Shown: positions 1,281-53,159 of the stretch, piece after piece
How the letters are laid out: each line of letters opens with the position of its first letter
How positions within the stretch are numbered: the stretch's first letter is position 1
Origin: a virus
Length of the DNA stretch: 64,000 nt
Reading direction: 5' to 3' (one strand)
IMG/VR virus record: IMGVR_UViG_3300021597_000002
Coordinates: 14,303 to 78,302 of that record
Position numbers and translations under genes: made by a program
The notes under the pieces: generated by a model
Told to the model about the DNA's origin: nothing
Seen by the model: the letters and a program-made list of their open reading frames with translations, nothing else
The model's database searches: none

Positions 1281-2615
1281 ATGAACAACAAATTTGACGA
1301 TATTAAACACCCGCCTCACTCTATCGAGGCGGAGCAATCCGTGATTGGTGGCTTGCTTTTAGACAACGAACGTTGGGAATCAGTAAGCGAGCGATTGACG
1401 AAAGCTGACTTCTACAGCCGTCCTCACCGGATTATCTTTGATGCTATAGGCTCGTTATTTGATAGCAGAACGCCCGTAGACCTTATCACCTTGTCTGAGC
1501 GCTTGGAGCAAAGAGAACAATTAGATGATGTTGGTGGGTTTGCGTATCTGGCGGACCTTGCCAAAAACACACCTAGTGCAGCCAACATCCTTGCTTACAC
1601 TGACATTGTGGCTGAGCGTTCTATGTTGCGCCACATGATCTCTGCTGCAAATGAAATCGCTGACGCCGCATACAATACGCAAGGCAGAAAACCAGAGGAA
1701 CTGCTCGATCTTGCAGAGAAGAAGGTGCTTTCTATCTCTGAGGCTCGCATCAAAAGTGACAACGTATTTGATGGCAAAAGCCTAATTGCAGAAACGATGG
1801 CGCGATTCAAATCCAGCAAGCGCAACAGTATCACCGGAATGAGAACGGGCTTTGATGAGCTTGATGCCATGACGCTAGGCTTACAACCGTCAGACTTTGT
1901 TGTGGTAGCGGCTAGACCATCGCATGGTAAAACCACCATGGCGCTAAACATCTGTGAAAGTGCCATCATGGAAGAAGAGAAACCCGTGTTACTTTTCTCT
2001 CTTGAAATGCCAAAGAGTCAGATCATGGATAAGCTCGTCTCTTCACTGTCTCGCGTTAGCTTAACCAGCATTAAGACAGGGCAGCTAAATGAAGAACAAG
2101 AGACACAAGTCGGCTCTGCACTTGGTCTGCTCGATTGGAAGCCGAACTTTTACATTGATGATAGTGCAGGCTTAACGCCGACTGAAATGAGAGCTAAAGC
2201 TCGTCGTATTGCTCGGGAGCATGGCGGATTGTCGATGATAGTTGTTGATTACCTACAGTTGATGCGCGTACCAGCACTAGCAGATAACCGTACTTTGGAA
2301 ATCTCTGAGATCTCCCGTTCACTCAAAGCATTAGCGAAAGAGTTAAACGTTCCTGTGGTTGCCTTGTCGCAGCTTAACCGCTCTTTGGAACAACGCCCAG
2401 ACAAGCGCCCTATCAACTCAGATTTGCGTGAATCAGGCGCTATTGAACAAGATGCTGACCTTATCATGTTTATCTACCGTGACGAGCTGTACAACGACAG
2501 AAGCAAGTACAAAGGCACCGCAGAGATCATCATAGGCAAGCAGCGCAACGGTCCTGTCGGTAACATTACGCTTCGTTTTGATGGCGACATCTCTCGCTTT
2601 GACAACTTACAGTAG
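1281..2615 (+). CDS. dnaB: Replicative DNA helicase (DnaB / P1 Ban analog)
   Basis: PPHSIEAEQSV N-terminus, Walker A ARPSHGKT, FSLEM, VDYLQL, SQLNR, DLRESGAIEQDAD, KQRNGP. Confidence 0.97.
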   Translation: MNNKFDDIKHPPHSIEAEQSVIGGLLLDNERWESVSERLTKADFYSRPHRIIFDAIGSLFDSRTPVDLITLSERLEQREQLDDVGGFAYLADLAKNTPSAANILAYTDIVAERSMLRHMISAANEIADAAYNTQGRKPEELLDLAEKKVLSISEARIKSDNVFDGKSLIAETMARFKSSKRNSITGMRTGFDELDAMTLGLQPSDFVVVAARPSHGKTTMALNICESAIMEEEKPVLLFSLEMPKSQIMDKLVSSLSRVSLTSIKTGQLNEEQETQVGSALGLLDWKPNFYIDDSAGLTPTEMRAKARRIAREHGGLSMIVVDYLQLMRVPALADNRTLEISEISRSLKALAKELNVPVVALSQLNRSLEQRPDKRPINSDLRESGAIEQDADLIMFIYRDELYNDRSKYKGTAEIIIGKQRNGPVGNITLRFDGDISRFDNLQ

Positions 2616-2630
2616 GGGCGCAAAGCCCCT

Positions 2631-2978
2631 TCAATAGAATCGCAATGTACCGTCGTCAGTCAGCTTAACGATCATTTCTTCAATCTTCTTGGTATCTGAG
2701 AGCCAGAATAATTTCTGCTCCATCTGTGGCAGATCGCCAACAAGCGACATCAACATTTCCAAAGGCATAAACACGTACTCAGCTGGGCGCCCATGCTCGT
2801 GCTTAAATCGCTCGTGGTTTTCTTTAAGGAGAGTTAAATAAGGGTTGGTATTCTTTGCCAGCTCATACGCTAACGGGCTGATCTTGTGATGTACACTGCC
2901 AATTGTGCCAACGTTCGCATGTTCTGCTTGTTTCATTGCCGTGGCAAGCTGCTGACCTAGTTGTTCTAATTTATCCAT
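2631..2978 (-). CDS. Hypothetical protein with its own late-type promoter
   Basis: 115-aa ORF with AAAGGA RBS; promoter motif at 3011-3055. Confidence 0.7.
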   Translation of the reverse strand: MDKLEQLGQQLATAMKQAEHANVGTIGSVHHKISPLAYELAKNTNPYLTLLKENHERFKHEHGRPAEYVFMPLEMLMSLVGDLPQMEQKLFWLSDTKKIEEMIVKLTDDGTLRFY

Positions 2979-3055
2979 GTCCGTTCCTTTCTACTCGATA
3001 AAACGGACTTAGGGTGGCATTGCGCTCACCCTGTCGCCACAACAAAACATTATAA

Positions 3056-3481
3056 TCAAAGCTCTAATTTCTTTTTATCCGATGGGTAACACCCGTTAGC
3101 TTTGAAATATTCATTTTTCTTTAGAAGCATAACTCCATAGCATTCACGGCACATAGATTCTGTGGACTCTCGACCGTTCAGTACTTGCTCTATAAATTTT
3201 TTGGTTCTCTTACAGTATCTGCCACATACACAACGACATTGCCAAACCCCTTTCCCCAGATACCCAATAACCTTTAATCTACCGACAATAGAACCCGTTA
3301 GATCTGTAAAAGCGGAGTCATCAGGTATCGGTTGGTGTTTTCTAGGAGCCTCCCAAAACTCAACATCGACCAGTTTATCTCTGTTTTTTATGTTAAAAGT
3401 GGAATGCTCAGGCGCTTTTTGAACAACCAAAGCAGCTTGCTTATTTACAGGTCTCAGCCTCAATGTACTTTTAAGAGTCAT
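3056..3481 (-). CDS. Cys-rich protein resembling the N-terminal part of phage HNH/AP2 endonucleases, with no nuclease domain
   Basis: DLTGSIVGRLKVIG...WQCRCVCG...SMCREC. Confidence 0.55.
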   Translation of the reverse strand: MTLKSTLRLRPVNKQAALVVQKAPEHSTFNIKNRDKLVDVEFWEAPRKHQPIPDDSAFTDLTGSIVGRLKVIGYLGKGVWQCRCVCGRYCKRTKKFIEQVLNGRESTESMCRECYGVMLLKKNEYFKANGCYPSDKKKLEL

Positions 3482-3797: not shown

Positions 3798-4125
3798 AAA
3801 CTGATCTACCCTTACTCGGGAAGCTCAATACATTAAAACCCACATCCTTTAGCCAGTACGCTATTGGCTTATAAGCTGGCTCATAGAAAAACGGACCGCC
3901 GCCGGTATCACACCAAGCACCAAACATCACGTTTGGTCGCTCAAGTCCTTTCGACTCAATCGTGCGCTCACCTTCGAATAGGAAATAAGCCTTGCGGGTC
4001 ACATCCCTTTGCACTCGAATAGCATTAAACTCATCACGCTCGGATATTTCACGCTGAAGTGCTTGCGCCTCATCTTCAGTCATTGATTTGGGCACCAGAA
4101 CGGTGCCAAAAATAGTGATACTCAT
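3778..4125 (-). CDS. Hypothetical protein
   Basis: AGGAGA RBS; operon packing. Confidence 0.7.
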   Translation of the reverse strand: MSITIFGTVLVPKSMTEDEAQALQREISERDEFNAIRVQRDVTRKAYFLFEGERTIESKGLERPNVMFGAWCDTGGGPFFYEPAYKPIAYWLKDVGFNVLSFPSKGRSVYEDDYE

Positions 4126-4136
4126 AAGGCTCTCCT

Positions 4137-4409
4137 TTAGCCAAGCACAGGCAAAATACTCACCCTTTTAAGCTCTTCCAGCTCAACATCTGTCAGCTGA
4201 AATGAAATCTCAGGCGGGGTTTTAGTAGAGTTGTCCATTTTGAACATCACCACATTCACACCACCTTCGTTAAGCGGATAATGATGAAACGCTCCGGACT
4301 TAGGCAGCTCTATTGTGAAACCGGCACTCCCTTCGATAGTTAACCCCATAGGTGTGTCTGGGGACTCTTCAACGATCTCTAAAATAAAACCTTCAAACTT
4401 ATGTTTCAT
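4137..4409 (-). CDS. Hypothetical protein (likely start MKHKFEG)
   Basis: GAGGAAG RBS before ATG at 4409; this start avoids overlap with the upstream ORF. Confidence 0.65.
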   Translation of the reverse strand: MKHKFEGFILEIVEESPDTPMGLTIEGSAGFTIELPKSGAFHHYPLNEGGVNVVMFKMDNSTKTPPEISFQLTDVELEELKRVSILPVLG

Positions 4410-4425
4410 AGCTTCCTCGGTGATC

Positions 4426-4839
4426 CTAATTGTTATCCATAAATGACAAGCAGTACTGTTCAAACTGGTAAAGCGCTTCATCATCAAAGCGACCTGAATC
4501 ACGCAGCCCCATCATTTCTTGAAACAAATGACGATTTTTATAGTCAAGATTGACGTAATCATGCAGGTGAGCTATTCGCGGTGTTTCCGTTCTACGGTAC
4601 CAGTTAGAAAAAGCGGTTGTAAAAAATGTTCTTGCGCGACCGCCATCTTCGATAGCCTCGCGTATATCTGCTAGAACATCCTCAAGTGGACGAGCCTTAG
4701 TAATCGTCTTTGGCTCTACGACCAATGAGCGAATAGACTCTAAAATCTTCATCTGATCAAGCTTGCTGTATTTTGGAAACTGCTCCTGCAGCTGTACCAA
4801 GCAATCATTCAACATAGACTCTTCAAAAGTAGCGTTCAT
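4426..4839 (-). CDS. Hypothetical phage protein
   Basis: 137-aa ORF with RBS; its promoter region overlaps a hexamer array. Confidence 0.7.
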   Translation of the reverse strand: MNATFEESMLNDCLVQLQEQFPKYSKLDQMKILESIRSLVVEPKTITKARPLEDVLADIREAIEDGGRARTFFTTAFSNWYRRTETPRIAHLHDYVNLDYKNRHLFQEMMGLRDSGRFDDEALYQFEQYCLSFMDNN

Positions 4840-4937: not shown

Positions 4938-6077
4938 CTATCCGCCTCCACCTCCCCAATTCATAGGGGCTGAGCGTGTTTTTACTCGACTATGAGCCAT
5001 TGCACCATCACGCGCTAATATTGCCCTACCATATCTAGCAACCATGGTACCGCTAGACCATCGTCCAGACTGTTGGATCTGTAACGTGTTATAGCCCTTT
5101 TTGAGTAGGTCTTGTGCTGCACCTACACGCGCACTGTGAGCAGTAAACGGCTTTACACCCTGACGTTCTAGGTCCAGCGCTTGCCATGCTGAATAGAACA
5201 CACCCTCAACCGTTTTGGTTGTAATGGCTTTGTGCAGTAGCTCTTCAGTATCTTTGTCTTTCTTCGGCTTGATGCAGGTATTGTGCTTTGATACACCCAC
5301 AAACAAGAAGCCATCACCACTCATATCCAGCTTGCCAGCTTCGGTGTAATCCATAAGCAAACTAACCACATCCTGACTGAGAATGCAGGTGTCCGGCTCG
5401 CCGCTATGGTTTGTCTTGGTGATAGGAATGGTTAACACTGCGGTACCATCCCCTGCTAATTCCATGTCACTAACTCGAATATTTGCCAGCTCAGACGCCC
5501 GTAACATGGACTCATACGCAACCGCCAACAACGCCAAGTTACGACGCAGCAACAGCTTATCGCTTCGGTACCAGAGCGAGGTGAGTTTCAGTAAATGCTG
5601 CTCGTTAAATGGTGAAGCCTGCTTAACGACCTCACCCTCCCTCACTTTCTTTCGAGATATGGCTTTGAGTCGGTCTTCTACATAAATATCAAGGCAGGGA
5701 TCGGGACAGCCGGCGACACGGTGAACACGGGAGATAGCCCAGCGATACACCGACAACGTATTGCGGTGCAACTGTTCAGCTCGCTCAATAAAAAACGCTT
5801 CGACGGTATCCGGTGTGGCAGGCAAAGAATGTCGATGATTTGCCAAGCACCAATCCACAAAGCAAGTCCACGCACTTTCCAATCGACGCAAGGTATTAGG
5901 CGAATAGCGCTCTTCCCTTTTCTTGAACTCATTAAGCAGGTGCTCGAACGCTGCCTTGAATTGTTCGTTCTCGGCAACGTTGATCCCTTTCTTCTGTGCC
6001 GCTTGGATCGCGGTTCTCACATCGTCCGGTCTGACGCCGGAAAAATCCCCCAACAGGGAGAGTTGATTTTCTATCAT
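4938..6077 (-). CDS. cre: Cre-like tyrosine recombinase, close variant of VCre (start MIENQLSLLGDF)
   Basis: Catalytic R(MLRASE)-K(TKTN)-H-x-x-R(HSAR)-W-Y(MVARY); sequence matches VCre as I recall it; lox site adjacent. Confidence 0.95.
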   Translation of the reverse strand: MIENQLSLLGDFSGVRPDDVRTAIQAAQKKGINVAENEQFKAAFEHLLNEFKKREERYSPNTLRRLESAWTCFVDWCLANHRHSLPATPDTVEAFFIERAEQLHRNTLSVYRWAISRVHRVAGCPDPCLDIYVEDRLKAISRKKVREGEVVKQASPFNEQHLLKLTSLWYRSDKLLLRRNLALLAVAYESMLRASELANIRVSDMELAGDGTAVLTIPITKTNHSGEPDTCILSQDVVSLLMDYTEAGKLDMSGDGFLFVGVSKHNTCIKPKKDKDTEELLHKAITTKTVEGVFYSAWQALDLERQGVKPFTAHSARVGAAQDLLKKGYNTLQIQQSGRWSSGTMVARYGRAILARDGAMAHSRVKTRSAPMNWGGGGG

Positions 6078-33331: not shown

Positions 33332-33748
33332 TTACTTTTTTTGAGTTGCAGCTGCAAGCTCTGCTTCCAACTGGCTTAGAATGGTGCGTTCTGAGCGCAG
33401 CGTTATTTGAGCACTGGTTAGGCGCTCACTTTGCTGTTCGATTTCGCGGCGAAGTTGTTCAGGATCACGAGGCGCAGTTTGGGAAATAAACTGATGCTTG
33501 TTTTCTCGAAGCTGTTCAAGGAATGGGCTATGACAGTCTTTATTGGCAGCATCAATATTAATCGACTCATAAGCTTGAGGATTAACACGACGGCAATACT
33601 TGTGAAGGATTTCGCGGCAAGCGGCATACTTCATACCGTTTACTGCCGCGACATCTGAGGTTTTAGCGCCCTTTAGAATGGCGCACGCAATTTGTTCTTC
33701 TTTTCTGAGTGAGATTTCACGCTCTTGATTTGTCTCGGTCTTGTCCAT
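33332..33748 (-). CDS. HTH protein with a C-terminal coiled coil; paralog of 50794-51351
   Basis: AILKGAKTSDVAAVNGMKYAACREILHKYCRRVNP aligns with SIFLGARIHDAAVMISVADRTMRDRFLTYCKHANP. Confidence 0.7.
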   Translation of the reverse strand: MDKTETNQEREISLRKEEQIACAILKGAKTSDVAAVNGMKYAACREILHKYCRRVNPQAYESINIDAANKDCHSPFLEQLRENKHQFISQTAPRDPEQLRREIEQQSERLTSAQITLRSERTILSQLEAELAAATQKK

Positions 33749-33936
33749 TTCGATTTCAGCCTTCCAACGTCACCGCTAAGCCGTGGTACCGCGCTCTACT
33801 TCAAAAGCGCTTTTGGTTGCCACAACAAACTTTTATCTTTTTGTTGTGCACTGTTTACCGTTTTTAGCGATGGCGAGAAACAACAAAAAAATGTTGTTTA
33901 ATCTTTTCTCGACTGGATCAAAACTTCGCAGATCAA

Positions 33937-42640: not shown

Positions 42641-45600
42641 TTAGGCGATAATCTCAAACACCTCCTTAACATCAACGCTCACAGGGAAATACCACCAGCT
42701 GCCATCCCAATCACCCTCTGCGGTACAGAACTTAGCACCAAAGCGGTTTTTAAGGATATCTTTAGCAGCAAACAGCTTACCGGCTTTACCATTTTCATCT
42801 TTCAAGAAGAAATACTGAAATGCTGACAATGAACGAGCGCGGTATCGACCATTACGAGGAATAGAAACATCTTTGTAGTTATATCGTGCAGTCACACCGA
42901 TATCTTCAAATCCTTTTTTCACTTCCGCTGGTAGCTCTTTAAAGGCTGGGTTCTTTTTTAGCTCTTCAAGTTCAGCGTCGGCAGCCTGACGTTTCGCGGT
43001 TTCTGCCTCATCAAGTAGCTTGTTTTCAAGTCCTGAAATGAACTCTCTCACCCAACGATTAATTTCCATTCGGTTATCCCCAAGTTCTGCGGCTTTATCT
43101 TCTGCAGATTCTTGGAAGTCCTGACGAGCCAGACGATATGCTTGGTGCTTAGCTATTGCTGCTGGCAGTCCTTTTAACGAAGAGGACAATTGAATGCCTT
43201 CTAAGAGCGTTGGTTGATAGTCCATCCAAGCCTTATCACACATTGCTAGGACATCGGCTTGTGAGGCTTTTTGTCCGTATTCCGCAATTTCTTGATCATA
43301 AAAGTCACCAAAGAATGGTTTTACAACTTCTCGCCATGCATACATTGGCTTATCTTCTCTGCGAAGTTTTAAGTAATGCAATGCAATCTCACGCTTCAAA
43401 GCGTTGTCACTGACGTCAGGGTAAACCAACATTTCTGTTGGATGCTGATCTGCGCTGGCGAGAGTAAGCTCTCCATTGACTCGGAATAGGAAGTTACCGT
43501 AACCCTGCAGCTTGATGTCATCACGGTATTTTACAAACTGATCTTTTTTCAGTTTTGATAGCGTGTTGTAGGTATAAGTGATAGATAAAATCTGTTTCAC
43601 CCTTACCTCATCATCTGACAAAGAAACATGCTTTAATCCGTCTGGCATGGAGTCCAAATCCGCTTTCATGAACTCCCCATTGCGGCGCCCCCACCAATAA
43701 TAGGAAACATCCCCAACAGGCACAGAGTAATGCACTGAGCGTGAAGATTGTTCAACCTGTTCAATGCGAAGAATTGCCCCGAAATCCGTTTCAAAATAAG
43801 TGCCAACCGTAAGCACCGAACCGTCACGAGCAACAATGGCATTTTCAGGGTTTTCGATAATCGTACTGTCAAACGGAAGTTCGCCAGCACTCGCTTTTTG
43901 TTTTAGGAACGTCATCCGTTGTGATAGTCGAGATTCAAGCTTGGCTTTATCTTCTTCCCATTTCGCATCATGATCTTGAAGGGATTTGTTAATTCGAGCC
44001 AATGCTTGTTCTGCTTTGCTACTATCTTCTCCTTTTTCTTTAATGCGAGAAAGCGATGCTTGAGCTTTGTCTTTACGCTCAACCAGTCGATTGTAGTCTT
44101 CAGCCTTATCCGCTTCCCAGCTGGCTAACTGACTGCGTAAGCCAATTACTTGAGACAGGTCTACAGCGCATTTCAAATCAGACTTACGCTTACGCTCTGC
44201 TTGTTTTTGGGCTAAGCGTTCCATCCGTTTAGCTTTGGCTGCTTCAGGATCGGCTTCAAACATGTCTAGGTAGTCATCGTTATCTATCGCATTGCCATTG
44301 ACTGCTTCTGATTCTGTTCCGTTGAACAAATCTCGCATCCAACTCTTTTTCTTATTGAGTAGATCAAGGCGGTAGCCATCAAACGAGCCTTTACCAAGGT
44401 AGTAGTACAGGCTTACTTTTGATGCTGTATTCCCTTGTCTTACCCCTCGTCCATTGCGTTGCTGAATAGAGGCAGGTGTCCATGGCAATGTTAGATGGTG
44501 AATTGCACTGGTCCCTTTTTGTAGGTTTACACCAACTTCAGCTTTTTTGTTACAGATAACGATTTTAATATCACCGGCATTGTAAGCATCAGCAATTCGT
44601 TGAAGCTTTGCCCCTGCGGCATCAGAGCCATTGATAATGCCGATCTGCTTTTCATCCAGACCAAGCTGGTTAACGATGATTCGCTTTAACTTATGGTGCT
44701 GAGTTTTTTCCTCGGTAAAGATAATTTGCTTACCTTTAACTTCTAACTCCGCTTTTAAGTTAGCGACCAGCTTCGCATACTTAGGCGTTAATGGATGGCT
44801 TACGTCGGCAGGCTTGATAGCCGCATCATTTAAACGGTCAAGTACAGCCTGTTCGTACACATCAGGAACCACCAGCACAATAGAGTCGGACTCGTCCTTT
44901 CGTTGATAATCCAGCTCAATAGAGACTTTACGTTTAACCTCTTCGCCATCTTCAGTTTGTTCGATGCGCTCTGCTTCGATAGATGCAGGAAGGGCAGCGA
45001 TAAGCTGATCAACCGCTTTGGCTTTTGACGCTGGGAAAGTAAAGGTCATGGCCTGGTTGAACAGATCCATGTCTGTTGTCACCTTATCCATGTCTCGCAT
45101 AACAGCGAATAGAGCGCGAGCATTCGCACTACGCTGGCGAGCCGGCTTGCTGGCTTCTTTTGCTTCTTCACGTAATGACTCATATGCCGATTCTTGATCT
45201 GCGGTCATGTCGACACTTTCATGAGTTTCTGGGGCATCTGGTAGCGCTAAGCTTACGTCTTCTGCGTTACGCATTAAGGTGTAACGGTGGAATAGGTTTC
45301 GTAATCCATCTAAGTTTTGGAAGCCGACTAATCCATCCTTTTGTACGATTTCACCTTTTACCGTCATTTTCTCAACGGTTTCAACCTTGCCGAACACACG
45401 AACAAAATCATCTGCAGTATAAACACCAAACTTTTCAAACTCTTCAACGGGTAATACCAGAGAAAGCATATTGAAAATCTCAAGGGGAGAGTTGGTTACT
45501 GGTGTCGCAGATAAAAGAACAGGTCCACGACCTTCGTTTTGATCACGTAGATATGCCATCTTCATTGCCATGTCGATAGCACGTTGTGATTCAGTCGGGT

Positions 45601-48600
45601 TTGGCAAGTATGCAATATTTGCCGTTTTGTCACCGGCTTTAAAACTGTTCTTAAATGCATGTGCTTCATCAATGATCACTGATTGGAAGCCCATATCTTC
45701 AAAATATGGGTACTCACCTTTCTTGTGACCGCCGTCTTCAAGGAAGCGTTGTTGCAAGGCTTCACGACGAACCGCTTCTTTATAGCTGATCTTGTCTTTG
45801 CCCTTACCAAGACTGAAGTCATCACCAGCGACCGTACTTGCTGCCATCTGGTCCGAAATTAGCGATTTCTCTACCCACTTGTCGGCATACTTATGCTTGT
45901 TGACTGGACGCATTTGAATTTCTTTATACTTTTCAAATGTCATGACAACTAACGATTTTGAGGTCTGGGGAATTTGGTGCATCTTGTCAAAGACTTCTTC
46001 GGCAGATTCTTTGATTAGGATGTCTTGATATTCGACGTCACCTGTATGCTTGTTTTTCTTTGGGTTTCCTTTCTCATCTTTTACGGCTTCACGCTGAATT
46101 TGCCCGTCTTTGTCTAACTTTGGTTTAAATCCGACAAACAGCGCATTATCCAGATTGCCATGAAACATCTTCGCTTCGTGGTACCAGTTCGCTAAAACAG
46201 AGTTAGGCACGACAATTAAGGTTTTATTGGCTCGCCCCATTTGCTTGTTGTAAGCCGCAAGCGCTAAGGCGCTAAATGTCTTACCAAGACCAACATCAAA
46301 CCCAAGAATACCAGAGCCATCTTCTGACAAGCGGCGTACAGCGGAACATTGGTAGCCATGAGGTTTAACCATGGCGCTAACACCTTCTAAACCTAAATCG
46401 GCATCAGAATGTTCAAATGGGATGTAAGAGTTAAACTTCTGGTTGTACAGCTCCGCCAGATCATCAATATCTTTGTGCTGCTGCATCCATAAGCGGAACT
46501 CTTCATCCAAACGCGCAACGCGCTCTTTGTACTCTTCGATATACTCTTGTTTTGAGCTAGTGACGTTGCCGCCATTTAGCCAGCTATTAAGCTGCTTATT
46601 GAAGCCTTGATTGTCTTCATAACCAACAAACTCACCAAATGGAGAGCTGGTATCACGCACTTTCACGTTTTCAACAAAACTGCCGCCAGTGTCATCGTCC
46701 GTCGCAACCTGCTTTTTATCGACGAGGTAATCTAAGTTTGAGTACCCTTTCTCATGCATAAATTCCAACACATACTGGCGGTCAATCCACTTGTGGCGCA
46801 TTGAAAATGCGATATTTTCCGGCTGCGTTTTGTATCGGCGCTGCTCTATTTCTTCCAGTTGCTGCTGGTACTTGGCTTTAAGCTTTGGATCGGTTTCGAC
46901 ATTGAGTGCATGACTAAGAGTAAGCACTTTTTGGTAAACATCGCCGGAGCAAAAGCGGCTCATTGGCATAACCAGACCATCGGGGTGAATAGCGAGGTTT
47001 TTATCATCTGCCAAGTCAGACAATGATTGAATTGGGGTCTTGCCTTTATAGAGTTGCTGAATGTCTTCTAGCGTAATGTGCATCATGCCTTCACGTAGAT
47101 ACAGATGTTCCACAATTGCATGTGGATTTGTATCATCAAACGCCAGACCTTTTGTGCTGACTTCACCAGTTAATAAGGTTGAATAATCACCATTTTCGTC
47201 CATAGCATTAGAAAAAACGCCAAAATAGCGAGAGCGTTCACCTGCTAGAATCAGCCCCTTGTTCTGTTTAGGGTGTCCATACTTGTTGATTTCGTTTGCC
47301 ACCAGCTCTTGCAAACGCATTTGTTCAGTGGCATTCCAATTACCCTGATTAGTATCATTTTGGAAGCGAGCTAGATCAGCACCGATTAATGAACCTCGGA
47401 AGATTTGCTCTCGATACTCATCGCTTGGTTGCGTCATGGCAAATTCAATAGCTTGCTTTTGAGGCTTAGAAAACAAATGTCCCCATGCTTTCATTGCAGC
47501 AAATGCCTGCTTCACTGAGAGCGACATTAAACCATGATTACTTTCAAGTAGCCCCTGAAGTGCCTCCAAAGACGCCACACCGTATTTACTTTCATCAATA
47601 TCAGTGGTCGTTTGTAATGCATCAACAGGCTCCCAGTTGCCACGAGTGAACTCATACGTGCGCTCATCAATAACACGGCGATCACCTTCCACGTAGTTCT
47701 TAATGGCTGGCTCAGCTGTATCTAGGGCTTCCCAGTCAATGCGAGAATGGAATTTTGCCGCCAGCTTACGCTTGAGGGCGACATCTGTAACACTCGCATC
47801 ACGGATCACTTTGTCGTCGTCACGTACTTTACTGGCATCTTTTGGAACAAATTTCCCATGAATAAAAGGTTTACCGTCACGCTCCCACCACTTACCTTCT
47901 AAGAAAGTGTCCCATAGTACATTTGCCGCTTGTAACTGCTCCATTGGTAGTTGAGCGATTTTCTCTGCGGCATTCTTGGAGTGTTTACGTAAGACGATAA
48001 TATCTGTAACAACACCGGTACCTTGTTTGCCAAATGTTTTGCTTGGGAGCTTGTGAGCACCAAGGAACTCAGCTTTTTTGCTGATCTTGGCTCGCCATTT
48101 TTGCCATGCTTTTCCACGTTCGCGCACAATATTCACAGGCACAACGAGAACAAGTAATCCACTAGGCTTTACTTTGTCGATAAGGCGGTTAATAAAGTAA
48201 CGCTCAATGAGCTTTTCACTTTTATGATCAGGGTCATCGTGAGCAGACGCACCACGGGCACTGCCAAAAGGTATGTTGCCAATTACAGAATCAAAGTGGT
48301 TGTCAGGTGATTCAACCGCCATCTTTTCAAACGATTGATTGAAAACATTATCTTCAGGGTGAAGAATTTTATTCACGGCAGAACTGATCGGATCGATTTC
48401 CGTTGCTGTCATTTTAACGCCTTGATGCTTAGTGGCATTAAATACACCAGCGCCGGCAGATGGCTCTAACACGTTGCCGTTATCAAACCCATTCGCACTC
48501 AACAGCTCCCAGCACCCTTCTGCAATGTAGGTCGGAGTGTAATATTCGTATTGGCTATTTTCACTCAGACCGCCACGCCCTGAGTACTGAACAAGCAGAT

Positions 48601-49687
48601 CATAATCTTCCGCTGTGAGCGTGCTTGTGTCCCAATTTGACGCTTTAATACGATCAACGATCGCTTTTACTTTGTTGTTGATCGCTTCTCGGGTTTTTAC
48701 GCCACTGGCTTTTAGACCAAACTCACGATCGCCAGCAAATGCGATAGGCTTGAATATCTGGTTGAAAGTAGCTTCTAACTCATTGATATCTTTAGCTGCC
48801 AATAGAGCTTGCACCTGTTCATCTGTCGCGCTATCAAGCACAGCATGGTCATGCACAAACTGTAATGGTAAGTCTAATTCCTCTCCATCAGCTTCAGCGA
48901 TCGCTTTTTTGAAGTCTTCAATGCGCATTGTAGAGATCGGTCCCAAGAACAGATCAGAATCATACTGCTTTAGATAAGCGTCTCGGGCTTGCTCTTTGTT
49001 GTCAAAGCCTAGCATTACCTTGTCTTCGTCAAAGAACTCAGGACAAGCGCAGTCTTGAACGTGCTCCTTACATTGAGGGCAGTATTTTGATGACCATTGT
49101 TTGATTTTTTCGATCGCATGTTGCTTCACGATGTAAACGTGATCGGCTTTTCGGTTCGGACCTACATAACAATCAATACCTTCCTGATCGGTTCCTTTGG
49201 TCGATCTTATGTACCCGTAGTCATAATGCATTGACACTGCCCATTCGCTACCATCAGGGTCTAGACCTGAACGTTTAGTGCCTGCCTTGTTTTCAATGGA
49301 AATCGGTAAACCTTGGAACTGATAACGGTCCTGCAGCTTGAATGATTGTGGTTTGGTCGTGAAGGATGGTTCTTCATCTTCCGCGCTATCAAACACAACA
49401 TCACGGTGTGGGTACGGTTTTTGCTCACCTTCAATAAACGTAATAGAAAAACCTTGTTCAATCGCGGCTTTAGTGGTGAACGAGTAATGAGCACTCATTG
49501 GTGCCATTTCTGGAAGCTGAGCAATTCGTCCGTCTGGGGTCATGCCATGAAAACGGATGAAATTTTTTATCATCGTCTGATCTTCGGCTGTGCCATCCAT
49601 TTCGACGGTTGCTTTTTGTTCCCAGTGAGAGTCAATCAGAATGGAAACTTCTGATTTAAAAGGGGTTGTTATTAAGAATCTGTACAT
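42641..49687 (-). CDS. darB: DarB-like virion-packaged methyltransferase-SNF2 helicase with an N-terminal InPase-like domain
   Basis: VLEPSAGAG and GNIPFG (MTase); DVGLGKT, IIDEAH, QRNGRGVRQGN (SF2); ISIENKAG..YGYI..DEDKVMLGF (InPase). Confidence 0.92.
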   Translation of the reverse strand: MYRFLITTPFKSEVSILIDSHWEQKATVEMDGTAEDQTMIKNFIRFHGMTPDGRIAQLPEMAPMSAHYSFTTKAAIEQGFSITFIEGEQKPYPHRDVVFDSAEDEEPSFTTKPQSFKLQDRYQFQGLPISIENKAGTKRSGLDPDGSEWAVSMHYDYGYIRSTKGTDQEGIDCYVGPNRKADHVYIVKQHAIEKIKQWSSKYCPQCKEHVQDCACPEFFDEDKVMLGFDNKEQARDAYLKQYDSDLFLGPISTMRIEDFKKAIAEADGEELDLPLQFVHDHAVLDSATDEQVQALLAAKDINELEATFNQIFKPIAFAGDREFGLKASGVKTREAINNKVKAIVDRIKASNWDTSTLTAEDYDLLVQYSGRGGLSENSQYEYYTPTYIAEGCWELLSANGFDNGNVLEPSAGAGVFNATKHQGVKMTATEIDPISSAVNKILHPEDNVFNQSFEKMAVESPDNHFDSVIGNIPFGSARGASAHDDPDHKSEKLIERYFINRLIDKVKPSGLLVLVVPVNIVRERGKAWQKWRAKISKKAEFLGAHKLPSKTFGKQGTGVVTDIIVLRKHSKNAAEKIAQLPMEQLQAANVLWDTFLEGKWWERDGKPFIHGKFVPKDASKVRDDDKVIRDASVTDVALKRKLAAKFHSRIDWEALDTAEPAIKNYVEGDRRVIDERTYEFTRGNWEPVDALQTTTDIDESKYGVASLEALQGLLESNHGLMSLSVKQAFAAMKAWGHLFSKPQKQAIEFAMTQPSDEYREQIFRGSLIGADLARFQNDTNQGNWNATEQMRLQELVANEINKYGHPKQNKGLILAGERSRYFGVFSNAMDENGDYSTLLTGEVSTKGLAFDDTNPHAIVEHLYLREGMMHITLEDIQQLYKGKTPIQSLSDLADDKNLAIHPDGLVMPMSRFCSGDVYQKVLTLSHALNVETDPKLKAKYQQQLEEIEQRRYKTQPENIAFSMRHKWIDRQYVLEFMHEKGYSNLDYLVDKKQVATDDDTGGSFVENVKVRDTSSPFGEFVGYEDNQGFNKQLNSWLNGGNVTSSKQEYIEEYKERVARLDEEFRLWMQQHKDIDDLAELYNQKFNSYIPFEHSDADLGLEGVSAMVKPHGYQCSAVRRLSEDGSGILGFDVGLGKTFSALALAAYNKQMGRANKTLIVVPNSVLANWYHEAKMFHGNLDNALFVGFKPKLDKDGQIQREAVKDEKGNPKKNKHTGDVEYQDILIKESAEEVFDKMHQIPQTSKSLVVMTFEKYKEIQMRPVNKHKYADKWVEKSLISDQMAASTVAGDDFSLGKGKDKISYKEAVRREALQQRFLEDGGHKKGEYPYFEDMGFQSVIIDEAHAFKNSFKAGDKTANIAYLPNPTESQRAIDMAMKMAYLRDQNEGRGPVLLSATPVTNSPLEIFNMLSLVLPVEEFEKFGVYTADDFVRVFGKVETVEKMTVKGEIVQKDGLVGFQNLDGLRNLFHRYTLMRNAEDVSLALPDAPETHESVDMTADQESAYESLREEAKEASKPARQRSANARALFAVMRDMDKVTTDMDLFNQAMTFTFPASKAKAVDQLIAALPASIEAERIEQTEDGEEVKRKVSIELDYQRKDESDSIVLVVPDVYEQAVLDRLNDAAIKPADVSHPLTPKYAKLVANLKAELEVKGKQIIFTEEKTQHHKLKRIIVNQLGLDEKQIGIINGSDAAGAKLQRIADAYNAGDIKIVICNKKAEVGVNLQKGTSAIHHLTLPWTPASIQQRNGRGVRQGNTASKVSLYYYLGKGSFDGYRLDLLNKKKSWMRDLFNGTESEAVNGNAIDNDDYLDMFEADPEAAKAKRMERLAQKQAERKRKSDLKCAVDLSQVIGLRSQLASWEADKAEDYNRLVERKDKAQASLSRIKEKGEDSSKAEQALARINKSLQDHDAKWEEDKAKLESRLSQRMTFLKQKASAGELPFDSTIIENPENAIVARDGSVLTVGTYFETDFGAILRIEQVEQSSRSVHYSVPVGDVSYYWWGRRNGEFMKADLDSMPDGLKHVSLSDDEVRVKQILSITYTYNTLSKLKKDQFVKYRDDIKLQGYGNFLFRVNGELTLASADQHPTEMLVYPDVSDNALKREIALHYLKLRREDKPMYAWREVVKPFFGDFYDQEIAEYGQKASQADVLAMCDKAWMDYQPTLLEGIQLSSSLKGLPAAIAKHQAYRLARQDFQESAEDKAAELGDNRMEINRWVREFISGLENKLLDEAETAKRQAADAELEELKKNPAFKELPAEVKKGFEDIGVTARYNYKDVSIPRNGRYRARSLSAFQYFFLKDENGKAGKLFAAKDILKNRFGAKFCTAEGDWDGSWWYFPVSVDVKEVFEIIA

Positions 49688-49882
49688 TCAGCGTATGGCG
49701 GGAGGTTCGCCATCCTCCTTTTGATGGGCAAACATTAATGTTCATCGGGAGGGTAACAAGCTCAATGAATACAGGCATCCACATAAAATTGTCAAAAGGT
49801 GGTCTACAATAAAAATTAACATAATAATTAACGTATAAATTACGCTTTCAGTTGGCGGTCGAATAGATATGTAGAGGACGGA

Positions 49883-50635
49883 ATGACCGCAAATAAGTAT
49901 AAAGACTGCTTAAAGAAGAATAAGCATCTATGCCAACGGTGTTACCCACGAAAGGACACGTCCATTCATTATGGGATTCATGCGGGACAGTTCGTGCTGT
50001 GTGATTGTCTGATTGCTGAATTGATGCGATATCCTGGTCCTGCCGGCATTAAAGGGCTTAATTCAGAATTTCTCATAATGAACTGCCATTATAGGGAGTT
50101 GGTGGATTTACCTTGTGGGTATAGCTTTTACGGTAAGCGACTTGAAGAAATGCCATCCTGCGTTCGTCATGAGACTGCCAAGAGCTACGACATGCAAGAT
50201 CGCCTCATTATGGAAGAGCGTCAGGCGATGATTTTTGCAGATTGCGACTACTTTTTCGGAGACAGTATCAAATTGCATACTGTTGAAACTCAGAAATACC
50301 CCCTAATTGACCTAAGCGGAAATTTGATCGGGATCGCTTTTTTGATAAATGATTTTTTCCGTCCTATGGATTCTAGACATGTAAAGCTGCCTGACTTTGC
50401 TGACCTTTCCACTCCTCTTAGCATGGCGGAATCTCGTCTCGTATTTTGTAAAAAAATGGGATTGTCTGACAAAGAATCCGCAGAAAGACTAGGGATTACG
50501 CCATCTACCGTGCGATCTCTCAAAGCTCGTATCCGTGATAAGACTGGTTACAGCGTGTCAGAACTTCGTACTTTATTATCCAGCCACTCATCATTTCGAC
50601 TTATCACCAAGAGCGATTCATTCAGGATACGCTAG
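49883..50635 (+). CDS. PAS + LuxR-HTH regulator, VqmA-like
   Basis: PGPAGIKGLNSEF..NCHYRELV..EMPS..SYDMQDRLI..QKYPLIDLSGNLIG (PAS) and LSMAESRLVF..GLSDKESAERLGITPSTV..RIRDK (LuxR HTH). Confidence 0.85.
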   Translation: MTANKYKDCLKKNKHLCQRCYPRKDTSIHYGIHAGQFVLCDCLIAELMRYPGPAGIKGLNSEFLIMNCHYRELVDLPCGYSFYGKRLEEMPSCVRHETAKSYDMQDRLIMEERQAMIFADCDYFFGDSIKLHTVETQKYPLIDLSGNLIGIAFLINDFFRPMDSRHVKLPDFADLSTPLSMAESRLVFCKKMGLSDKESAERLGITPSTVRSLKARIRDKTGYSVSELRTLLSSHSSFRLITKSDSFRIR

Positions 50636-50638
50636 ATT

Positions 50639-50658
50639 TGTGGACACTTTTGTCTACA
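50639..50658. promoter_or_regulatory. 20-bp palindrome, candidate class II activator site
   Basis: TGTGGACA-CTTT-TGTCTACA, centred at -43.5 relative to a CATACT -10 at 50680-50685. Confidence 0.55.
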
Positions 50659-50727
50659 TACACCATAAGTATGTTTATGCATACTCGCCCTTACTGAGTC
50701 TTTGAATTATATAAAAAAGATTAAAAA

Positions 50728-50747
50728 TACTGTATAAATAAACAGTA
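50728..50747. promoter_or_regulatory. LexA (SOS) box
   Basis: TACTGTATAAATAAACAGTA = CTG-N10-CAG consensus. Confidence 0.9.
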
Positions 50748-50793
50748 TATAACTGACGTTAGTTCAAATTCGACCTAGAAGGAGAAATATGTA

Positions 50794-51351
50794 GTGCTAG
50801 GTGATTACATCCATACAGTTTTAGCCCACATTGAAAATACGGATTTTGGGACAGGATATCTGGAATCAGAAGGACGCAAGAGCGAAGCAAATGCCACCAG
50901 CCACCAGCAAAAAGGAGGCAAGCAAGAATTTATTCCGTGTGGGGATAAGGCTAACTTCCCATACAACGAAGAAACACGAAAGGCGGTCCTGTCAATCTTT
51001 CTCGGGGCGCGTATTCATGATGCTGCTGTCATGATTAGTGTTGCAGACCGAACGATGCGTGATCGCTTCCTGACTTACTGTAAGCACGCAAATCCAGATC
51101 AGTTTGAGCGGATTTATGAGCGAGCAGTCCATCAAGGATATTCAACGCCACCAGTCGAGCTATTTCAGCCTTACGTGTTGGATTTCTTTACACAAGCGGA
51201 TCTGCCTGTATTGCACAGTGAGGCTAAGGTTTTACCGACAGCCAAAGAGCTGGCTGAAGAAAGCCTAGAGAAAGCGAAGCTGGAACTCTCCCTAGCTCGC
51301 ATTCGATTGAGTGTGGTAGAAGGTATGACAAGAATTTTAGGGTGCGAATAA
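50794..51351 (+). CDS. SOS-regulated HTH protein; paralog of 33332-33748
   Basis: LexA box and AAGGAG RBS upstream; HTH-like GARIHDAAVMISVADRTMRDRF; terminal coiled coil. Confidence 0.72.
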   Translation: MLGDYIHTVLAHIENTDFGTGYLESEGRKSEANATSHQQKGGKQEFIPCGDKANFPYNEETRKAVLSIFLGARIHDAAVMISVADRTMRDRFLTYCKHANPDQFERIYERAVHQGYSTPPVELFQPYVLDFFTQADLPVLHSEAKVLPTAKELAEESLEKAKLELSLARIRLSVVEGMTRILGCE

Positions 51352-51392
51352 AAAACCGGCTCCGTATCGTACTTGGAGCCGGAATGTAAGTA

Positions 51393-53159
51393 TTAAATTA
51401 GTGGTAGTTCAGTATCTGATTGATACCAGTCGGGTGCTTGATTGTTGCAGGCTAGATAAAAGGCGCTTTGGGGAAGTGGTTTAATCCCTCGTGCTGATAA
51501 TTCATGAAGATACATGAATATTTCTGCCTGCACTCTTTCTCTAAAGAAGTGTCGGGTTTGGTCTTGCTTGCCACTCATCACAGTTACACCGTAAATTTGC
51601 TTGCGCTGTCTAGGCGCCTTGGCTGGAAATAGCTGACAAGTTCCAAGCGTCCGAGTCCATCCCCACTTTTTATTGTGGGCATTAGTCTTCCCTTTTCCCG
51701 TTAATGCTTGTTGCCATGCTTCATCAGAAGCCATACGATGCCCATCTTGCCATGATAGTGTCGCAATTACTTTCTTTACTGCATTGGCAAAACTTGTTCC
51801 ATGGACCTGCTTTTCGAGCTGCTTTTTCTGGCGTTGTATGAGGGTATCGTTAACGCCTGTCATCATACCAACCATTAACGTAAACATTTCTTCGTCACTG
51901 TCATACAAGGCGTACATGCTTTCAAGTGAGGAAAATTGCTGGATCCCCATGGAGGCAACCTCGGTCGCGCCACTCTCATACACTTTTCCGACATACGGTG
52001 AATAAAAGTTATCTGGGATAGCTATCTCATCACTTTTGTATGATCGGTTGTTGGTCAGTTCGCTGAGTCGTTGTGGGGAGCCAGAGGCACGCTTTTGGAT
52101 AAACCGCTGATTGGCTAATTTAACTGACTCGTCAGCTTCAAGTAGGTGGCTCATTTCGTGGAATAGCGTGCGACGGTCAAAATCATGATCAATATCAATG
52201 GTAGCGGTATTGATTATGGCACTGGCTCGTTTGCTACCAGTTGTTACCAATCGGACATTATCGAGCCTACCGTTAAGCAAGCGATAATATGTTGCCATGT
52301 CACGGCGGACTTCTGACTCTGGGTAGCCTGATTTTCGCATTCTGGCGATAGCAGACGCACTGATCTCTTGATGGGTAGCCCAGAGGTCAGCCTCTTCCTG
52401 AGAGACGCTAGAATGTGCAAGCAGGGAGTCATACACACTGGACATCAACTCTGTCCCTATCCGCTTCTTTTGATCTTGTAACGCTTGAAGTTGAAGTCGT
52501 GCGGTTTGGTCTAATTCTTCACTGGATGCCATAAGCACAGGGTCTATTTGCGTCCGGTGAGCAGACTCAATGGCAGAGCGAATCATTTCAAATTCGGACA
52601 TTAGAGCTTCACTTTGCCCTTGTTCGTGAATTTGACCGATCACCCCACGGGCTTTCTCTGCGAGTGGAGAGATGTATTCATTTTCAAGTCGCTCAATCTT
52701 TTTATTGATATCTGGGTTACTACGCAGCAATTCGTTAATGTTATGAGCGACATCTTTAAGTAATTGCGCTTTTTCTGACTCAATTACTTTGCTGAGAAAT
52801 TGCTCGCCATGCTGCTGCCAGAATTGTCGCTGTCGTTCATCAAGATCGTCAGGAACAATATAGGCTTGTCGTACACTGTTTAGATCAGCACCCTGCTCTG
52901 ATATCAATTCTAGTCGGTTGTCATTGTATCGGCTCAACTCAACTTGCAGCGAGACAATATCGCGCCAAACTTGAAATTTTTCTAAATCATCCTCGGTGTC
53001 GATTAGCTTTTGTTTTAGTGCCTTAGCTTGGTGCGTTTGGGCACTTATCATTTCGCCAAAAGCCGCAAGAAAGACGGCGCTAAGACCGTCTATCTCGCTG
53101 GATGCTTGTATGGCGGAAATGACTGCCTTCTTTTTAGGCTGGGAGTCTTTTTTCGACAT
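51393..53159 (-). CDS. ddrB: DdrB-like protein with a zincin motif
   Basis: LFHEMSHLLE, PYVGKVY, TEVASMG; position after ddrA. Confidence 0.7.
   Translation of the reverse strand: MSKKDSQPKKKAVISAIQASSEIDGLSAVFLAAFGEMISAQTHQAKALKQKLIDTEDDLEKFQVWRDIVSLQVELSRYNDNRLELISEQGADLNSVRQAYIVPDDLDERQRQFWQQHGEQFLSKVIESEKAQLLKDVAHNINELLRSNPDINKKIERLENEYISPLAEKARGVIGQIHEQGQSEALMSEFEMIRSAIESAHRTQIDPVLMASSEELDQTARLQLQALQDQKKRIGTELMSSVYDSLLAHSSVSQEEADLWATHQEISASAIARMRKSGYPESEVRRDMATYYRLLNGRLDNVRLVTTGSKRASAIINTATIDIDHDFDRRTLFHEMSHLLEADESVKLANQRFIQKRASGSPQRLSELTNNRSYKSDEIAIPDNFYSPYVGKVYESGATEVASMGIQQFSSLESMYALYDSDEEMFTLMVGMMTGVNDTLIQRQKKQLEKQVHGTSFANAVKKVIATLSWQDGHRMASDEAWQQALTGKGKTNAHNKKWGWTRTLGTCQLFPAKAPRQRKQIYGVTVMSGKQDQTRHFFRERVQAEIFMYLHELSARGIKPLPQSAFYLACNNQAPDWYQSDTELPLI

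Follow-up and report, generated by a model that had tools for sequence, protein, structure and literature searches.

Organization of the locus

The window, a 64-kb stretch of DNA, belongs to a circular record of 78,302 bp (127-bp terminal overlap) from a P1-like plasmid-prophage of marine Vibrio, with family members among the plasmids of V. cholerae, V. vulnificus, V. parahaemolyticus, and V. campbellii. One member of this family, pVv01, is inducible by mitomycin C (PMC4132613). Two co-oriented genes, ORF A and ORF B, form a cassette between a darB-like and a ddrB-like gene, and the features that the initial annotation had placed there (ORF A, the palindrome, CATACT, the LexA box, and ORF B) were all found at the following positions.

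49789-49816, plus strand: promoter-like site upstream of ORF A (TTGTCA, 16 nt, AAAAAT), called by the consensus scan
49883-50635, plus strand: ORF A, a 250-aa regulator with matches to PAS_4, phrog_27555, and VqmA structures in the PDB
50639-50658, no strand assigned: imperfect palindrome TGTGGACA-cttt-TGTCTACA, the proposed ORF A operator, unique and with a core invariant in seven elements
50680-50685, plus strand: CATACT, -10-like hexamer of the proposed activator-dependent promoter P1, in the invariant block TTATGCATACTC
50702-50731, plus strand: possible second promoter P2 (TTGAAT, 18 nt, AATACT), read from the sequence, its -10 overlapping the LexA box
50728-50747, no strand assigned: LexA box TACTGTATAAATAAACAGTA, matching the E. 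coli consensus at 18/20 positions (0 expected by chance)
50780-50784, plus strand: Shine-Dalgarno AGGAG, 9 nt ahead of the ORF B GTG, in the context CTAGAAGGAG
50794-51351, plus strand: ORF B, 185 aa, GTG start, with an N-terminal extension (aa 1-55), a predicted four-helix HTH core (aa 59-113), and a long C-terminal helix (aa 148-183)
51350-51382, no strand assigned: hairpin CCGGCTCC-loop-GGAGCCGG where ORF B and the ddrB-like gene converge, with a T-run on the minus strand
Flanking genes, opposite strand: DarB-like (2348 aa); DdrB-like and DdrA-like
33332-33748, minus strand: 138-aa paralog of the ORF B core (BLASTP E 2e-6), first gene of the rdgC-trfA operon
33881-33896: CAACA-N6-TGTTG box ahead of the paralog

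The absence of a visible cI/C1, remarked on in the initial annotation, was borne out when tblastn with P1 C1 against the 78-kb record returned no homolog, and the same search with P1 Coi, Lxc, Hxr, C8, and Lpa gave no match either. The element also encodes a candidate repressor, an 81-aa protein (phrog_7950) whose operator is repeated. The plasmid p48/10 carries a 1-nt insertion in ORF B and one IMG/VR record has a split ORF A, which means that the module is dispensable for plasmid maintenance. An Rfam search of 49500-51600 found no RNA family, and the hairpin at 51350-51382 was read from the sequence, as the plus-strand scan did not call it. Each of four metatranscriptome runs yielded a single short contig (164-224 nt) that covers parts of ORF A or of ORF B, at least 99% alike except for one at 95-99%; since contigs of this kind reveal neither strand nor transcript starts nor abundance and may stem from DNA carry-over, they were not counted as expression.

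ORF A and its relation to VqmA

ORF A opens with a conserved, Cys/His-rich extension at aa 1-47, in which C17, C20, H29, C40, and C42 are nearly invariant. A PAS-like domain follows at about aa 48-160 and a LuxR-type HTH at about aa 178-235, which is the order of these two domains in VqmA. The Pfam PAS_4 match was just below the cut-off, none of the three proteins ORF A, ORF B, and the 138-aa paralog had an NCBIfam match, and over PAS and HTH together ORF A matched the phage VqmA structure 7dwm (E 6.7e-7) and the V. cholerae VqmA structures 6ugl, 6kju, and 6ide (E about 1.5e-6). Identity to VqmA(Phage) of the VP882-type modules is about 27%, and a search for related loci with VqmAphi in genome contigs found nothing. 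Modelled by AlphaFold from 11 sequences, ORF A reached a pLDDT of 49, too poor for comparing the pocket.

ORF A had been described as a VqmA-like receptor in a quorum-sensing-like module, a reading that neither BLASTP nor the maximum-likelihood tree supports. In BLASTP, ORF A scored 30-48 bits against VqmA or VqmAphi versus 65-108 bits against proteins of Yersinia, Arsenophonus, and a second Vibrio clade; in the tree, VqmA and VqmAphi formed one clade (support 94/84) and ORF A a separate one (100/100) on a very long branch. Profile alignment to VqmA, which had been put forward as a check of the receptor reading, likewise spoke against it. With hhalign, ORF A aligned to VqmA at a probability of 98.6 (E 5e-16, 185 columns), to VqmA-type PAS-LuxR regulators at 98.6-98.9, and to non-VqmA PAS-LuxR proteins at E 1.4e-17, so that it is equally far from both, while VqmA itself aligned to the non-VqmA proteins at E 1e-39. 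By these sequence comparisons, ORF A, found only in phages, forms a deep branch of its own within the superfamily to which VqmA belongs.

The alignments bear out the residue equivalences drawn earlier by eye (Tyr, Gln, Asp, Lys), in that Y70, Q105, D120, and K138 of ORF A align with Y36, Q70, D85, and K101 of VqmA, but the Lys and the QD motif occur in the Yersinia, Arsenophonus, and second-clade Vibrio proteins as well and are therefore not diagnostic of VqmA. Previous work showed that VqmA Y36F and D85N bind DPO with about wild-type affinity and that the decisive residues are F67, F99, and K101 (bioRxiv 10.1101/2019.12.19.881847). At these three positions ORF A has Y102, T136, and K138, all invariant in its family; two of the three key DPO residues would be kept, both of them non-diagnostic. 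Moreover, VqmA operators are of the GG-N6-CC or GG-N9-CC type (PMC8284805), unlike the TGTGGACA-N4-TGTCTACA box linked to ORF A. Taken as a whole, the reading of ORF A as a VqmA that senses DPO and cell density is weakly supported.

The control region between ORF A and ORF B

The arms of the palindrome are complementary at 7/8 positions, and the sequence lies 3 nt past the stop codon of ORF A. It occurs once in the window (0.06 expected) and once in the whole record, and it gave the sole perfect match in the 6.3-Mb genome of a host that carries a related plasmid. Across seven elements with coding flanks about 70% identical, the palindrome, CATACT, and the LexA box are invariant, and the leader past the LexA box is not conserved. 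The palindrome has neither a T-run nor a stable hairpin. CATACT follows 21 nt past it and has no -35 element; the palindrome centre at -43.5 given in the initial annotation needs a transcription start 7 nt past the hexamer, which is assumed.

The LexA box is the sole such site in the window, in the whole record, and in five complete relatives, and it lies in the promoter region of ORF B, as in LexA-gated induction genes of the coi, tum, and antC type. The P2 hexamers, which read TTGATT and AATACT or AACACT in the relatives, may form a second promoter; they score 8/12, under the scan threshold, and the consensus promoter scan called neither P1 nor P2. Promoter-like sites in the region were not above shuffles, so the call at 49789-49816 is weak, and the block around that site is conserved among relatives. 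No terminator lies between ORF A and ORF B, so read-through must be handled somehow.

ORF B and its paralog

ORF B has no Pfam or NCBIfam family and only a PHROG assignment of unknown function. Its HTH nature is predicted from a structural model (pLDDT 73 overall, above 90 in the core) and from fold comparison: the top rows of VIA-align were NarL, StyR, RhlR, RcsB, and VpsT (Z 5.4-5.8, rmsd about 3 A, about 64 residues), the best being a middling match of the LuxR/GerE type (Z 5.8, rmsd 3.2 A over 64 residues). A Foldseek search of the PDB with the model turned up nothing that reached E 0.001, and from the ESM Atlas came only HTH leads of low score (at most 0.81). The HTH residues are invariant among homologs and form the most conserved part of the protein, including the charged residues of the third helix. 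A homodimer model scored 0.54, versus 0.00 for the best of three controls, with at least 85% of contacts in agreement between runs and a partner pLDDT of at least 83; of 30 proteins with structures solved as same-chain pairs, 20 attained the 0.54 mark, as did 1 of 23 with structures solved as single chains. These models suggest that ORF B is probably a dimeric transcription factor.

No match to ORF B was obtained by tblastn against the phage collection, by the family alignment against viral contigs, or by the family profile against P1. Short homologs, which do not have the 55-aa N-terminal extension, lie directly after rep genes on Vibrionaceae plasmids of 2-3 kb, a position that could mean a role linked to replication and not to lysis.

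Within the element, the family profile found exactly two copies, ORF B and the 138-aa paralog. CAACA-N6-TGTTG boxes with at most one mismatch number 13, versus 2.6 in shuffles, and the box at the promoter of the paralog is the same as that of the structural operons, which would tie replication to the lytic regulon. The third (recognition) helices of ORF B and the paralog differ, so a common target of the two is not implied. The box was represented in pE7G2 and pVpR13_19Kb by no more than single sites with one mismatch, which is uninformative.

The same arrangement in a second phage-plasmid lineage

In a lineage of phage-plasmids with P2-like tail genes, we found ORF A homologs about 60% identical to ORF A and with the same recognition helix, followed in order by a related box, a -10 hexamer, an antisense XRE repressor gene, a LexA box, and an effector. 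The distance from the box to CATAAT is 22 nt there, versus 21 nt to CATACT here. The lineage is without ORF B; its effector is a 76-aa orphan gene that has a LexA box, is preceded by the same CTAGAAGGAG ribosome-binding context, and adjoins the short XRE repressor gene. The occurrence of ORF A and its box with two different effectors in two lineages suggests that regulator and box travel together while the effector is swapped, and a regulator adjacent to its presumed target effector, in a pair that varies modularly, would be common to this module and to the VqmAphi-Qtip and TF-smORF modules of phages. This shared order of parts is the best evidence, at the sequence level, for a module with two inputs.

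A proposed two-input induction module and its alternatives

We would explain the observed features, with their uniqueness, conservation, homologies, and parallel architecture in a second lineage, as an induction module with two inputs, carried by a P1-like Vibrio phage-plasmid, a reading that we hold on balance to be correct, with considerable reservation. A dimer of ORF A would bind the palindrome at 50639-50658 and, upon a signal in its PAS domain, activate the -35-less promoter P1 (CATACT as -10, box centre near -43.5); its Cys-rich N-terminal head may sense the signal too. Host LexA, bound about 40 nt downstream, would probably repress the weak P2 and may also hinder transcripts from P1, a block that DNA damage would lift. 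Both routes would lead to ORF B, a putative transcription factor that would start the lytic programme and so trigger lysis in an element that appears to have no P1-type C1/Coi system. One gene would probably receive both a chemical cue and a DNA-damage cue in this way. The pairing of proteins with sites, the activation, the OR or AND logic, the ligand, and the effect of ORF B are what we infer. The convergence of a sensor-type regulator and LexA on 50794-51351, already proposed from the window, gains support from the same order in the lineage with P2-like tail genes, and the inducibility of pVv01 (PMC4132613) fits an induction switch.

Different readings of the input side were considered. It is quite unlikely that ORF A works as a VqmA analog, with host DPO as its ligand, and brings about induction at high cell density as in VP882. 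Its match to solved VqmA structures, the retained Y70, Q105, D120, and K138 with Y102 as a conservative substitute for F67, and hosts that are vibrios with chromosomal VqmA would fit that idea, but ORF A lies on its long branch outside the VqmA and VqmAphi clade and no nearer to VqmA than to other PAS-LuxR proteins, F99 is replaced by Thr, the Lys and QD motif are common property, the box is unrelated to the VqmA operator (PMC8284805), and the protein has an additional Cys-rich head and a shorter linker and C-terminus. Very little likelihood attaches to a palindrome that serves as an operator for ORF B autoregulation, as the site of another factor, or as an RNA element that ends ORF A transcripts. 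Binding of ORF A to the palindrome is a proposal drawn from sequence, ORF B is likewise a predicted dimeric HTH protein, and the site begins just past the ORF A stop codon; against this, a related box stands behind ORF A homologs in a lineage that has no ORF B, its spacing of 21 or 22 nt to the -10 is kept, and an RNA element would have to work with neither T-run nor stable hairpin.

On the output side, it is possible, though we would not expect it, that ORF B is not a DNA-binding activator but an antirepressor and, in the manner of P1 Coi, 186 Tum, N15 AntC, and Qtip, inactivates a prophage repressor through protein-protein contact. ORF B occupies the same slot as the LexA-boxed 76-aa orphan gene near a short XRE repressor, P1 has LexA over its antirepressor promoter, the 55-aa extension is missing from the short plasmid homologs, and the 81-aa protein with its repeated operator is a candidate target. 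However, conservation of ORF B peaks at the HTH and its charged third helix, the predicted DNA-binding fold and symmetric dimer argue for a transcription factor, and ORF B is not similar to Coi. We also think it unlikely that the module tunes copy number or replication, for instance through activation of the TrfA replicon, or serves some other SOS-linked accessory function in place of lysis. The short homologs directly after rep genes, the paralog at the head of the rdgC-trfA operon, and the location of the cassette among anti-restriction genes agree with such a role, whereas the sole LexA box in a family with a mitomycin-C-inducible member (PMC4132613), the same control region before a small gene beside a prophage repressor in the second lineage, and the box shared by the paralog promoter and the structural operons argue for lytic induction.

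The induction module and the paralog can be joined in one circuit, about which we are rather doubtful. No phage repressor would act at the switch to hold lysogeny; LexA would silence ORF B as a master activator, ORF A would override LexA upon its signal, and ORF B would turn on the autoregulated paralog at 33332-33748, which in turn would control the CAACA-N6-TGTTG late regulon and TrfA as a lytic replicon. ORF A would then be a receptor of the PAS-LuxR type, restricted to phages, whose cysteine head responds to metal or redox state, and the 2-3 kb plasmids with short ORF B homologs could tap the same circuit.

Comparison with known systems

To our knowledge, phage receptors that eavesdrop on such cues are known only in VP882-like and other linear plasmid phages. 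ORF A would add a new phage-restricted branch of the receptor superfamily in two other types of phage-plasmid, P1-like and with P2-like tail genes, and the locus offers a compact, testable case of a prophage that may join a chemical cue and DNA damage at one promoter region, as well as a handle on the induction decision of P1-like marine phage-plasmids without C1 and Coi. Since the family spans plasmids of four named vibrios, the induction cue would bear on vibrio gene flow.

Phage Mu uses Mor and then C, small dimeric HTH activators and paralogs of each other, at promoters without a -35 element and with dyad sites near -43.5. The element studied here resembles Mu, as generally known, in its two paralogous, putatively dimeric HTH proteins and its -35-less candidate promoter with a dyad near -43.5, although no sequence or family match to Mor or C was found for ORF B. 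P1 coi, N15 antC, and 186 tum share with ORF B a host LexA box that gates an induction gene, the prophage repressor itself not being cleaved; in phage P1 the LexA site lies over the P2 promoter of the antirepressor gene coi. ORF B differs from them in looking like a DNA-binding dimer and in having an extra activator-type input upstream, and tblastn with P1 Coi as a known antirepressor gave nothing for ORF B.

The TF-smORF modules (Silpe et al. 2023, PMC10432266) likewise pair a transcription factor with an adjacent effector that varies between related phages, and the 76-aa orphan ORF beside the ORF A homolog in the lineage with P2-like tail genes recalls them. Those modules were described as SOS-independent and located in the repA-telN locus (PMC10432266). 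A repA-telN location, a counter-oriented small ORF, and SOS independence were not found in the module here, where the effector gene has a LexA box and, in the P1-like lineage, is not small.

VqmA(Phage)-Qtip of VP882 and VP882-like linear plasmid phages (PMC10432266, PMC12802170, PMC8284805) is similar in having a phage-borne PAS and LuxR-type HTH protein beside its presumed target, a plasmid-like Vibrio prophage, and an induction route beside DNA damage. In contrast, ORF A has the extra Cys/His-rich head, another operator, and a place outside the VqmA clade; the two genes are co-oriented here and counter-oriented there; the output is a 185-aa protein with a predicted HTH and coiled-coil versus the 79-aa Qtip; a LexA box stands within the control region; and the module sits at a darB-like/ddrB-like site of a circular P1-like element versus the repA/telN site. 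The earlier expectation that the wiring would differ from VP882 is upheld.

The element and its control region

The 78,302-bp record, of which the window represents 64 kb, has a 127-bp terminal overlap indicating a circular assembly. The 74-kb plasmid of V. campbellii BoB-90 was 99.6% identical over the cassette region, and identities of 70-91% were found with plasmids of V. campbellii, Vibrio sp. 0908 (p0908), V. parahaemolyticus, V. vulnificus (p48/10) and V. cholerae (pE7G). The window and these plasmids belong to the Vibrio P1-like plasmid-prophage family, of which the member pVv01 yielded myovirus particles after mitomycin C (PMC4132613). These matches and the flanking minus-strand genes bear out the initial annotation, which had placed the cassette on the opposite strand between darB and ddrB of a P1-like phage-plasmid. 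All the features it had listed were found in place, and its remark that no cI/C1 was visible also held, as the 78-kb record had no homolog of P1 C1, nor of Coi, Lxc or Lpa.

Features of the cassette and its flanks
42641-49687, minus: DarB-like gene, one flank
49883-50635, plus: ORF A, PAS and LuxR-type HTH regulator gene, 250 aa
50639-50658: palindrome TGTGGACA-cttt-TGTCTACA (the box), starting three bases past the ORF A stop codon
50680-50685: CATACT (-10-like), 21 nt past the palindrome
TTGAAT, 18 nt, AATACT: weak candidate second promoter, overlapped by the LexA box
50728-50747: LexA box, 2 mismatches to the 20-mer consensus
50794-51351, plus: ORF B (output gene), GTG start, AGGAG 9 nt upstream, 185 aa
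51393-53445, minus: DdrB-like and DdrA-like genes, other flank

The palindrome occurred once in the window (expected 0.06) and once in the whole record, and was the sole perfect match in the 6.3-Mb genome of a V. owensii strain hosting a related plasmid. Likewise, the record had no second site like the LexA box, which in five complete related plasmids was the sole CTGT-N8-ACAG site with an AT-rich spacer. When seven elements were aligned, the palindrome core, TTATGCATACTC, a TTGA(A/T)T-containing block and the LexA box were invariant, the leader from the LexA box to the ribosome site was poorly conserved, and the coding flanks were only about 70% identical, which argues that selection maintains the invariant islands as regulatory DNA. 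The palindrome is centred about 31 nt before the -10 hexamer begins, with no -35 element, a geometry that matches class II-type activation and is the same as that of the CAACA boxes described below. Upstream of ORF A, at 49786-49812, a conserved TGTC(A/C)-N8/9-CTACA motif has half-site-like words in common with the downstream box and is a possible autoregulation site. In each of four metatranscriptome runs, all from different studies, one short, near-identical contig covered a portion of ORF A or of ORF B (49819-51273); strand, starts and expression level were unreadable from these contigs.

ORF A and the quorum-sensing question

The initial annotation had called ORF A a VqmA-like receptor. 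Among solved structures, its sequence matched only phage VqmA (7dwm, E 6.7e-7) and V. cholerae VqmA (E about 1.5e-6), with alignments spanning PAS and HTH. We compared it with Vibrio chromosomal VqmA orthologs, VqmA of phage VP882 (VqmAphi), a second chromosomal Vibrio PAS-LuxR clade, a plasmid-encoded protein of Yersinia ruckeri and an Arsenophonus protein that takes the place of TraJ in an F-like transfer operon. By BLASTP, VqmA and VqmAphi scored 65-108 bits against the non-VqmA PAS-LuxR proteins and 30-48 bits against the ORF A family; in the ML tree they formed one group (94/84), and the ORF A family stood outside it as a 100/100 clade with a very long stem branch. In profile-profile comparison the ORF A family was equidistant from VqmA (E 5e-16) and the non-VqmA group (E 1.4e-17), while these two matched each other at E 1e-39. 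On these sequence comparisons, therefore, ORF A is a true homolog at the superfamily level and not a VqmA ortholog. The Arsenophonus protein, encoded between traY and traA of A. nasoniae paPv4 (2438-3151) and related to both VqmA and ORF A, connects regulators of the VqmA and TraJ types within a single superfamily.

The ORF A family has few members (11 clusters at >=58% identity), was present in one of 151 sampled Vibrio species genomes, there on a 79-kb plasmid contig, and looks restricted to mobile elements. All members of both lineages (the second is described below) have a 47-residue N-terminal extension (49883-50023), absent from VqmA, in which C17, C20, H29, C40 and C42 are nearly invariant (C-x2-C ... 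H ... C-x-C) and which could serve metal binding or redox sensing. Several database annotations begin ORF A at Met48 and thus miss it.

Binding of the autoinducer DPO by V. cholerae VqmA rests on F67, F99 and K101; F67A and K101R abolish it, and Y36F and D85N have about wild-type affinity (bioRxiv 10.1101/2019.12.19.881847). The corresponding ORF A residues are Y102, T136 and K138. Of the pocket residues said to be retained, the Lys and the QD motif are indeed present, but they also occur in non-VqmA members and are thus markers of fold rather than ligand. Moreover, VqmA operators are GG-N6-CC or GG-N9-CC palindromes (PMC8284805), unlike the box downstream of ORF A. With ORF A outside the VqmA clade and a dissimilar box, the quorum-sensing label is unsupported, and DPO sensing by ORF A is very unlikely.

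ORF B and the CAACA boxes

ORF B matched no Pfam or NCBIfam family, and its sole PHROG is of unknown function. Its structure model was confident at residues 59-133 and 148-183, and a full PDB scan ranked LuxR/GerE-type DNA-binding domains first (NarL, Z 5.8, rmsd 3.2 A, 64 residues), a middling match covering whole target domains. The HTH residues were invariant in orthologs down to 50% identity. A homodimer model with its contact through the C-terminal helix scored 0.54, whereas the best of three controls scored 0.00. Among proteins solved as one-chain pairs 20 of 30 reached that mark, compared with 1 of 23 single-chain structures; with contact agreement of at least 85% and pLDDT of at least 83 across runs, the modelling supports homodimer binding.

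A profile search of 1.8 billion representatives found only 14 relatives, most of them 134-140 aa long, lacking the first 55 residues and located on 2-3 kb Vibrionaceae contigs and plasmids (Vibrio, Photobacterium). The 2,466-bp iteron plasmid pE7G2 (NZ_CP089147.1), which shares its V. cholerae strain with the P1-like pE7G, has rep followed immediately by a gene for a 136-aa homolog of the ORF B core, and also carries an RHH-like gene. Such small plasmids may be tied to, or exploit, the phage-plasmid circuit.

ORF B copy and CAACA-N6-TGTTG boxes
33332-33748: more divergent ORF B copy of this element, first gene of the rdgC-trfA operon
7009, 11363, 11481, 16349, 33881, 42050 and others: boxes before leftward operons, 23-24 nt upstream of -10-like hexamers

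The rdgC-trfA operon is preceded by a perfect box, 23 nt from a -10-like hexamer, and boxes also stand upstream of structural operons. With 13 sites at <=1 mismatch (4 perfect) versus 2.6 in shuffles, the set is a late-promoter-like regulon, unlike P1 Lpa promoters. A perfect palindrome, CCTGTACATTGTACAGG, occurred twice and a variant once (about 23743, 25026 and 29115), the variant directly before an 81-aa gene matching phrog_7950 (transcriptional repressor); these sites are a candidate immunity operator set.

A second lineage and the proposed switch

The second lineage, comprising Vibrio phage 10N.237.312.C11_PE002A and two IMG/VR contigs, has P2-like tail genes and a RepA. Its ORF A homologs share about 60% identity with ORF A and have nearly the same recognition helix, and directly past their stop follows TGTAGACA-aaaa-TAGCTACA, then CATAAT at 22 nt. 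Further along are an oppositely oriented gene for a 109-aa XRE-type repressor, a LexA box, the CTAGAAGGAG ribosome site (common to ORF B), a 76-aa orphan ORF and repA. The order of regulator, box and LexA box is thus kept while the effector differs, and this is the best evidence, at the sequence level, that ORF A and the box would belong together. When the repressor is a short XRE protein lacking a peptidase domain, SOS induction requires an antirepressor, which makes the LexA-boxed 76-aa ORF a plausible induction effector; ORF B is by position its counterpart. Compared with pE7G, ORF B of p48/10 (4104-4625) has one inserted nucleotide in the HTH region, and in one IMG/VR record (5001-5750) ORF A is split into two frames, reflecting either module decay or sequencing errors.

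The two-input reading, a sensor regulator combined with LexA, is well supported by comparative evidence. ORF B would very probably be held off by LexA until DNA damage; ORF A would likely bind the box and activate the CATACT promoter in response to a ligand; and ORF B, more probably an activator that binds DNA than an antirepressor, would with somewhat less assurance launch the lytic and replicative programme. The mechanism as a whole is slightly favoured. As the LexA box overlaps the weak second promoter and sits 36-55 nt downstream of the presumed first transcription start, the inputs could be additive (OR), or the first promoter could also be LexA-blocked (AND), both compatible with the sequence.

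Comparison with known systems

Our literature search, which covered part of the journals, found no paper on a VqmA-like gene in a circular phage-plasmid, whether P1-like or of another type. VqmA receptors of phages and TF-smORF modules (a transcription factor with a neighbouring small effector ORF) have so far been reported only from linear plasmid-like phages, where they lie between repA and telN and are described as routes that do not depend on SOS (PMC10432266, PMC12802170). For the SOS input at an induction gene, P1 coi offers a precedent, since the P1 record annotates a LexA site over P2coi.
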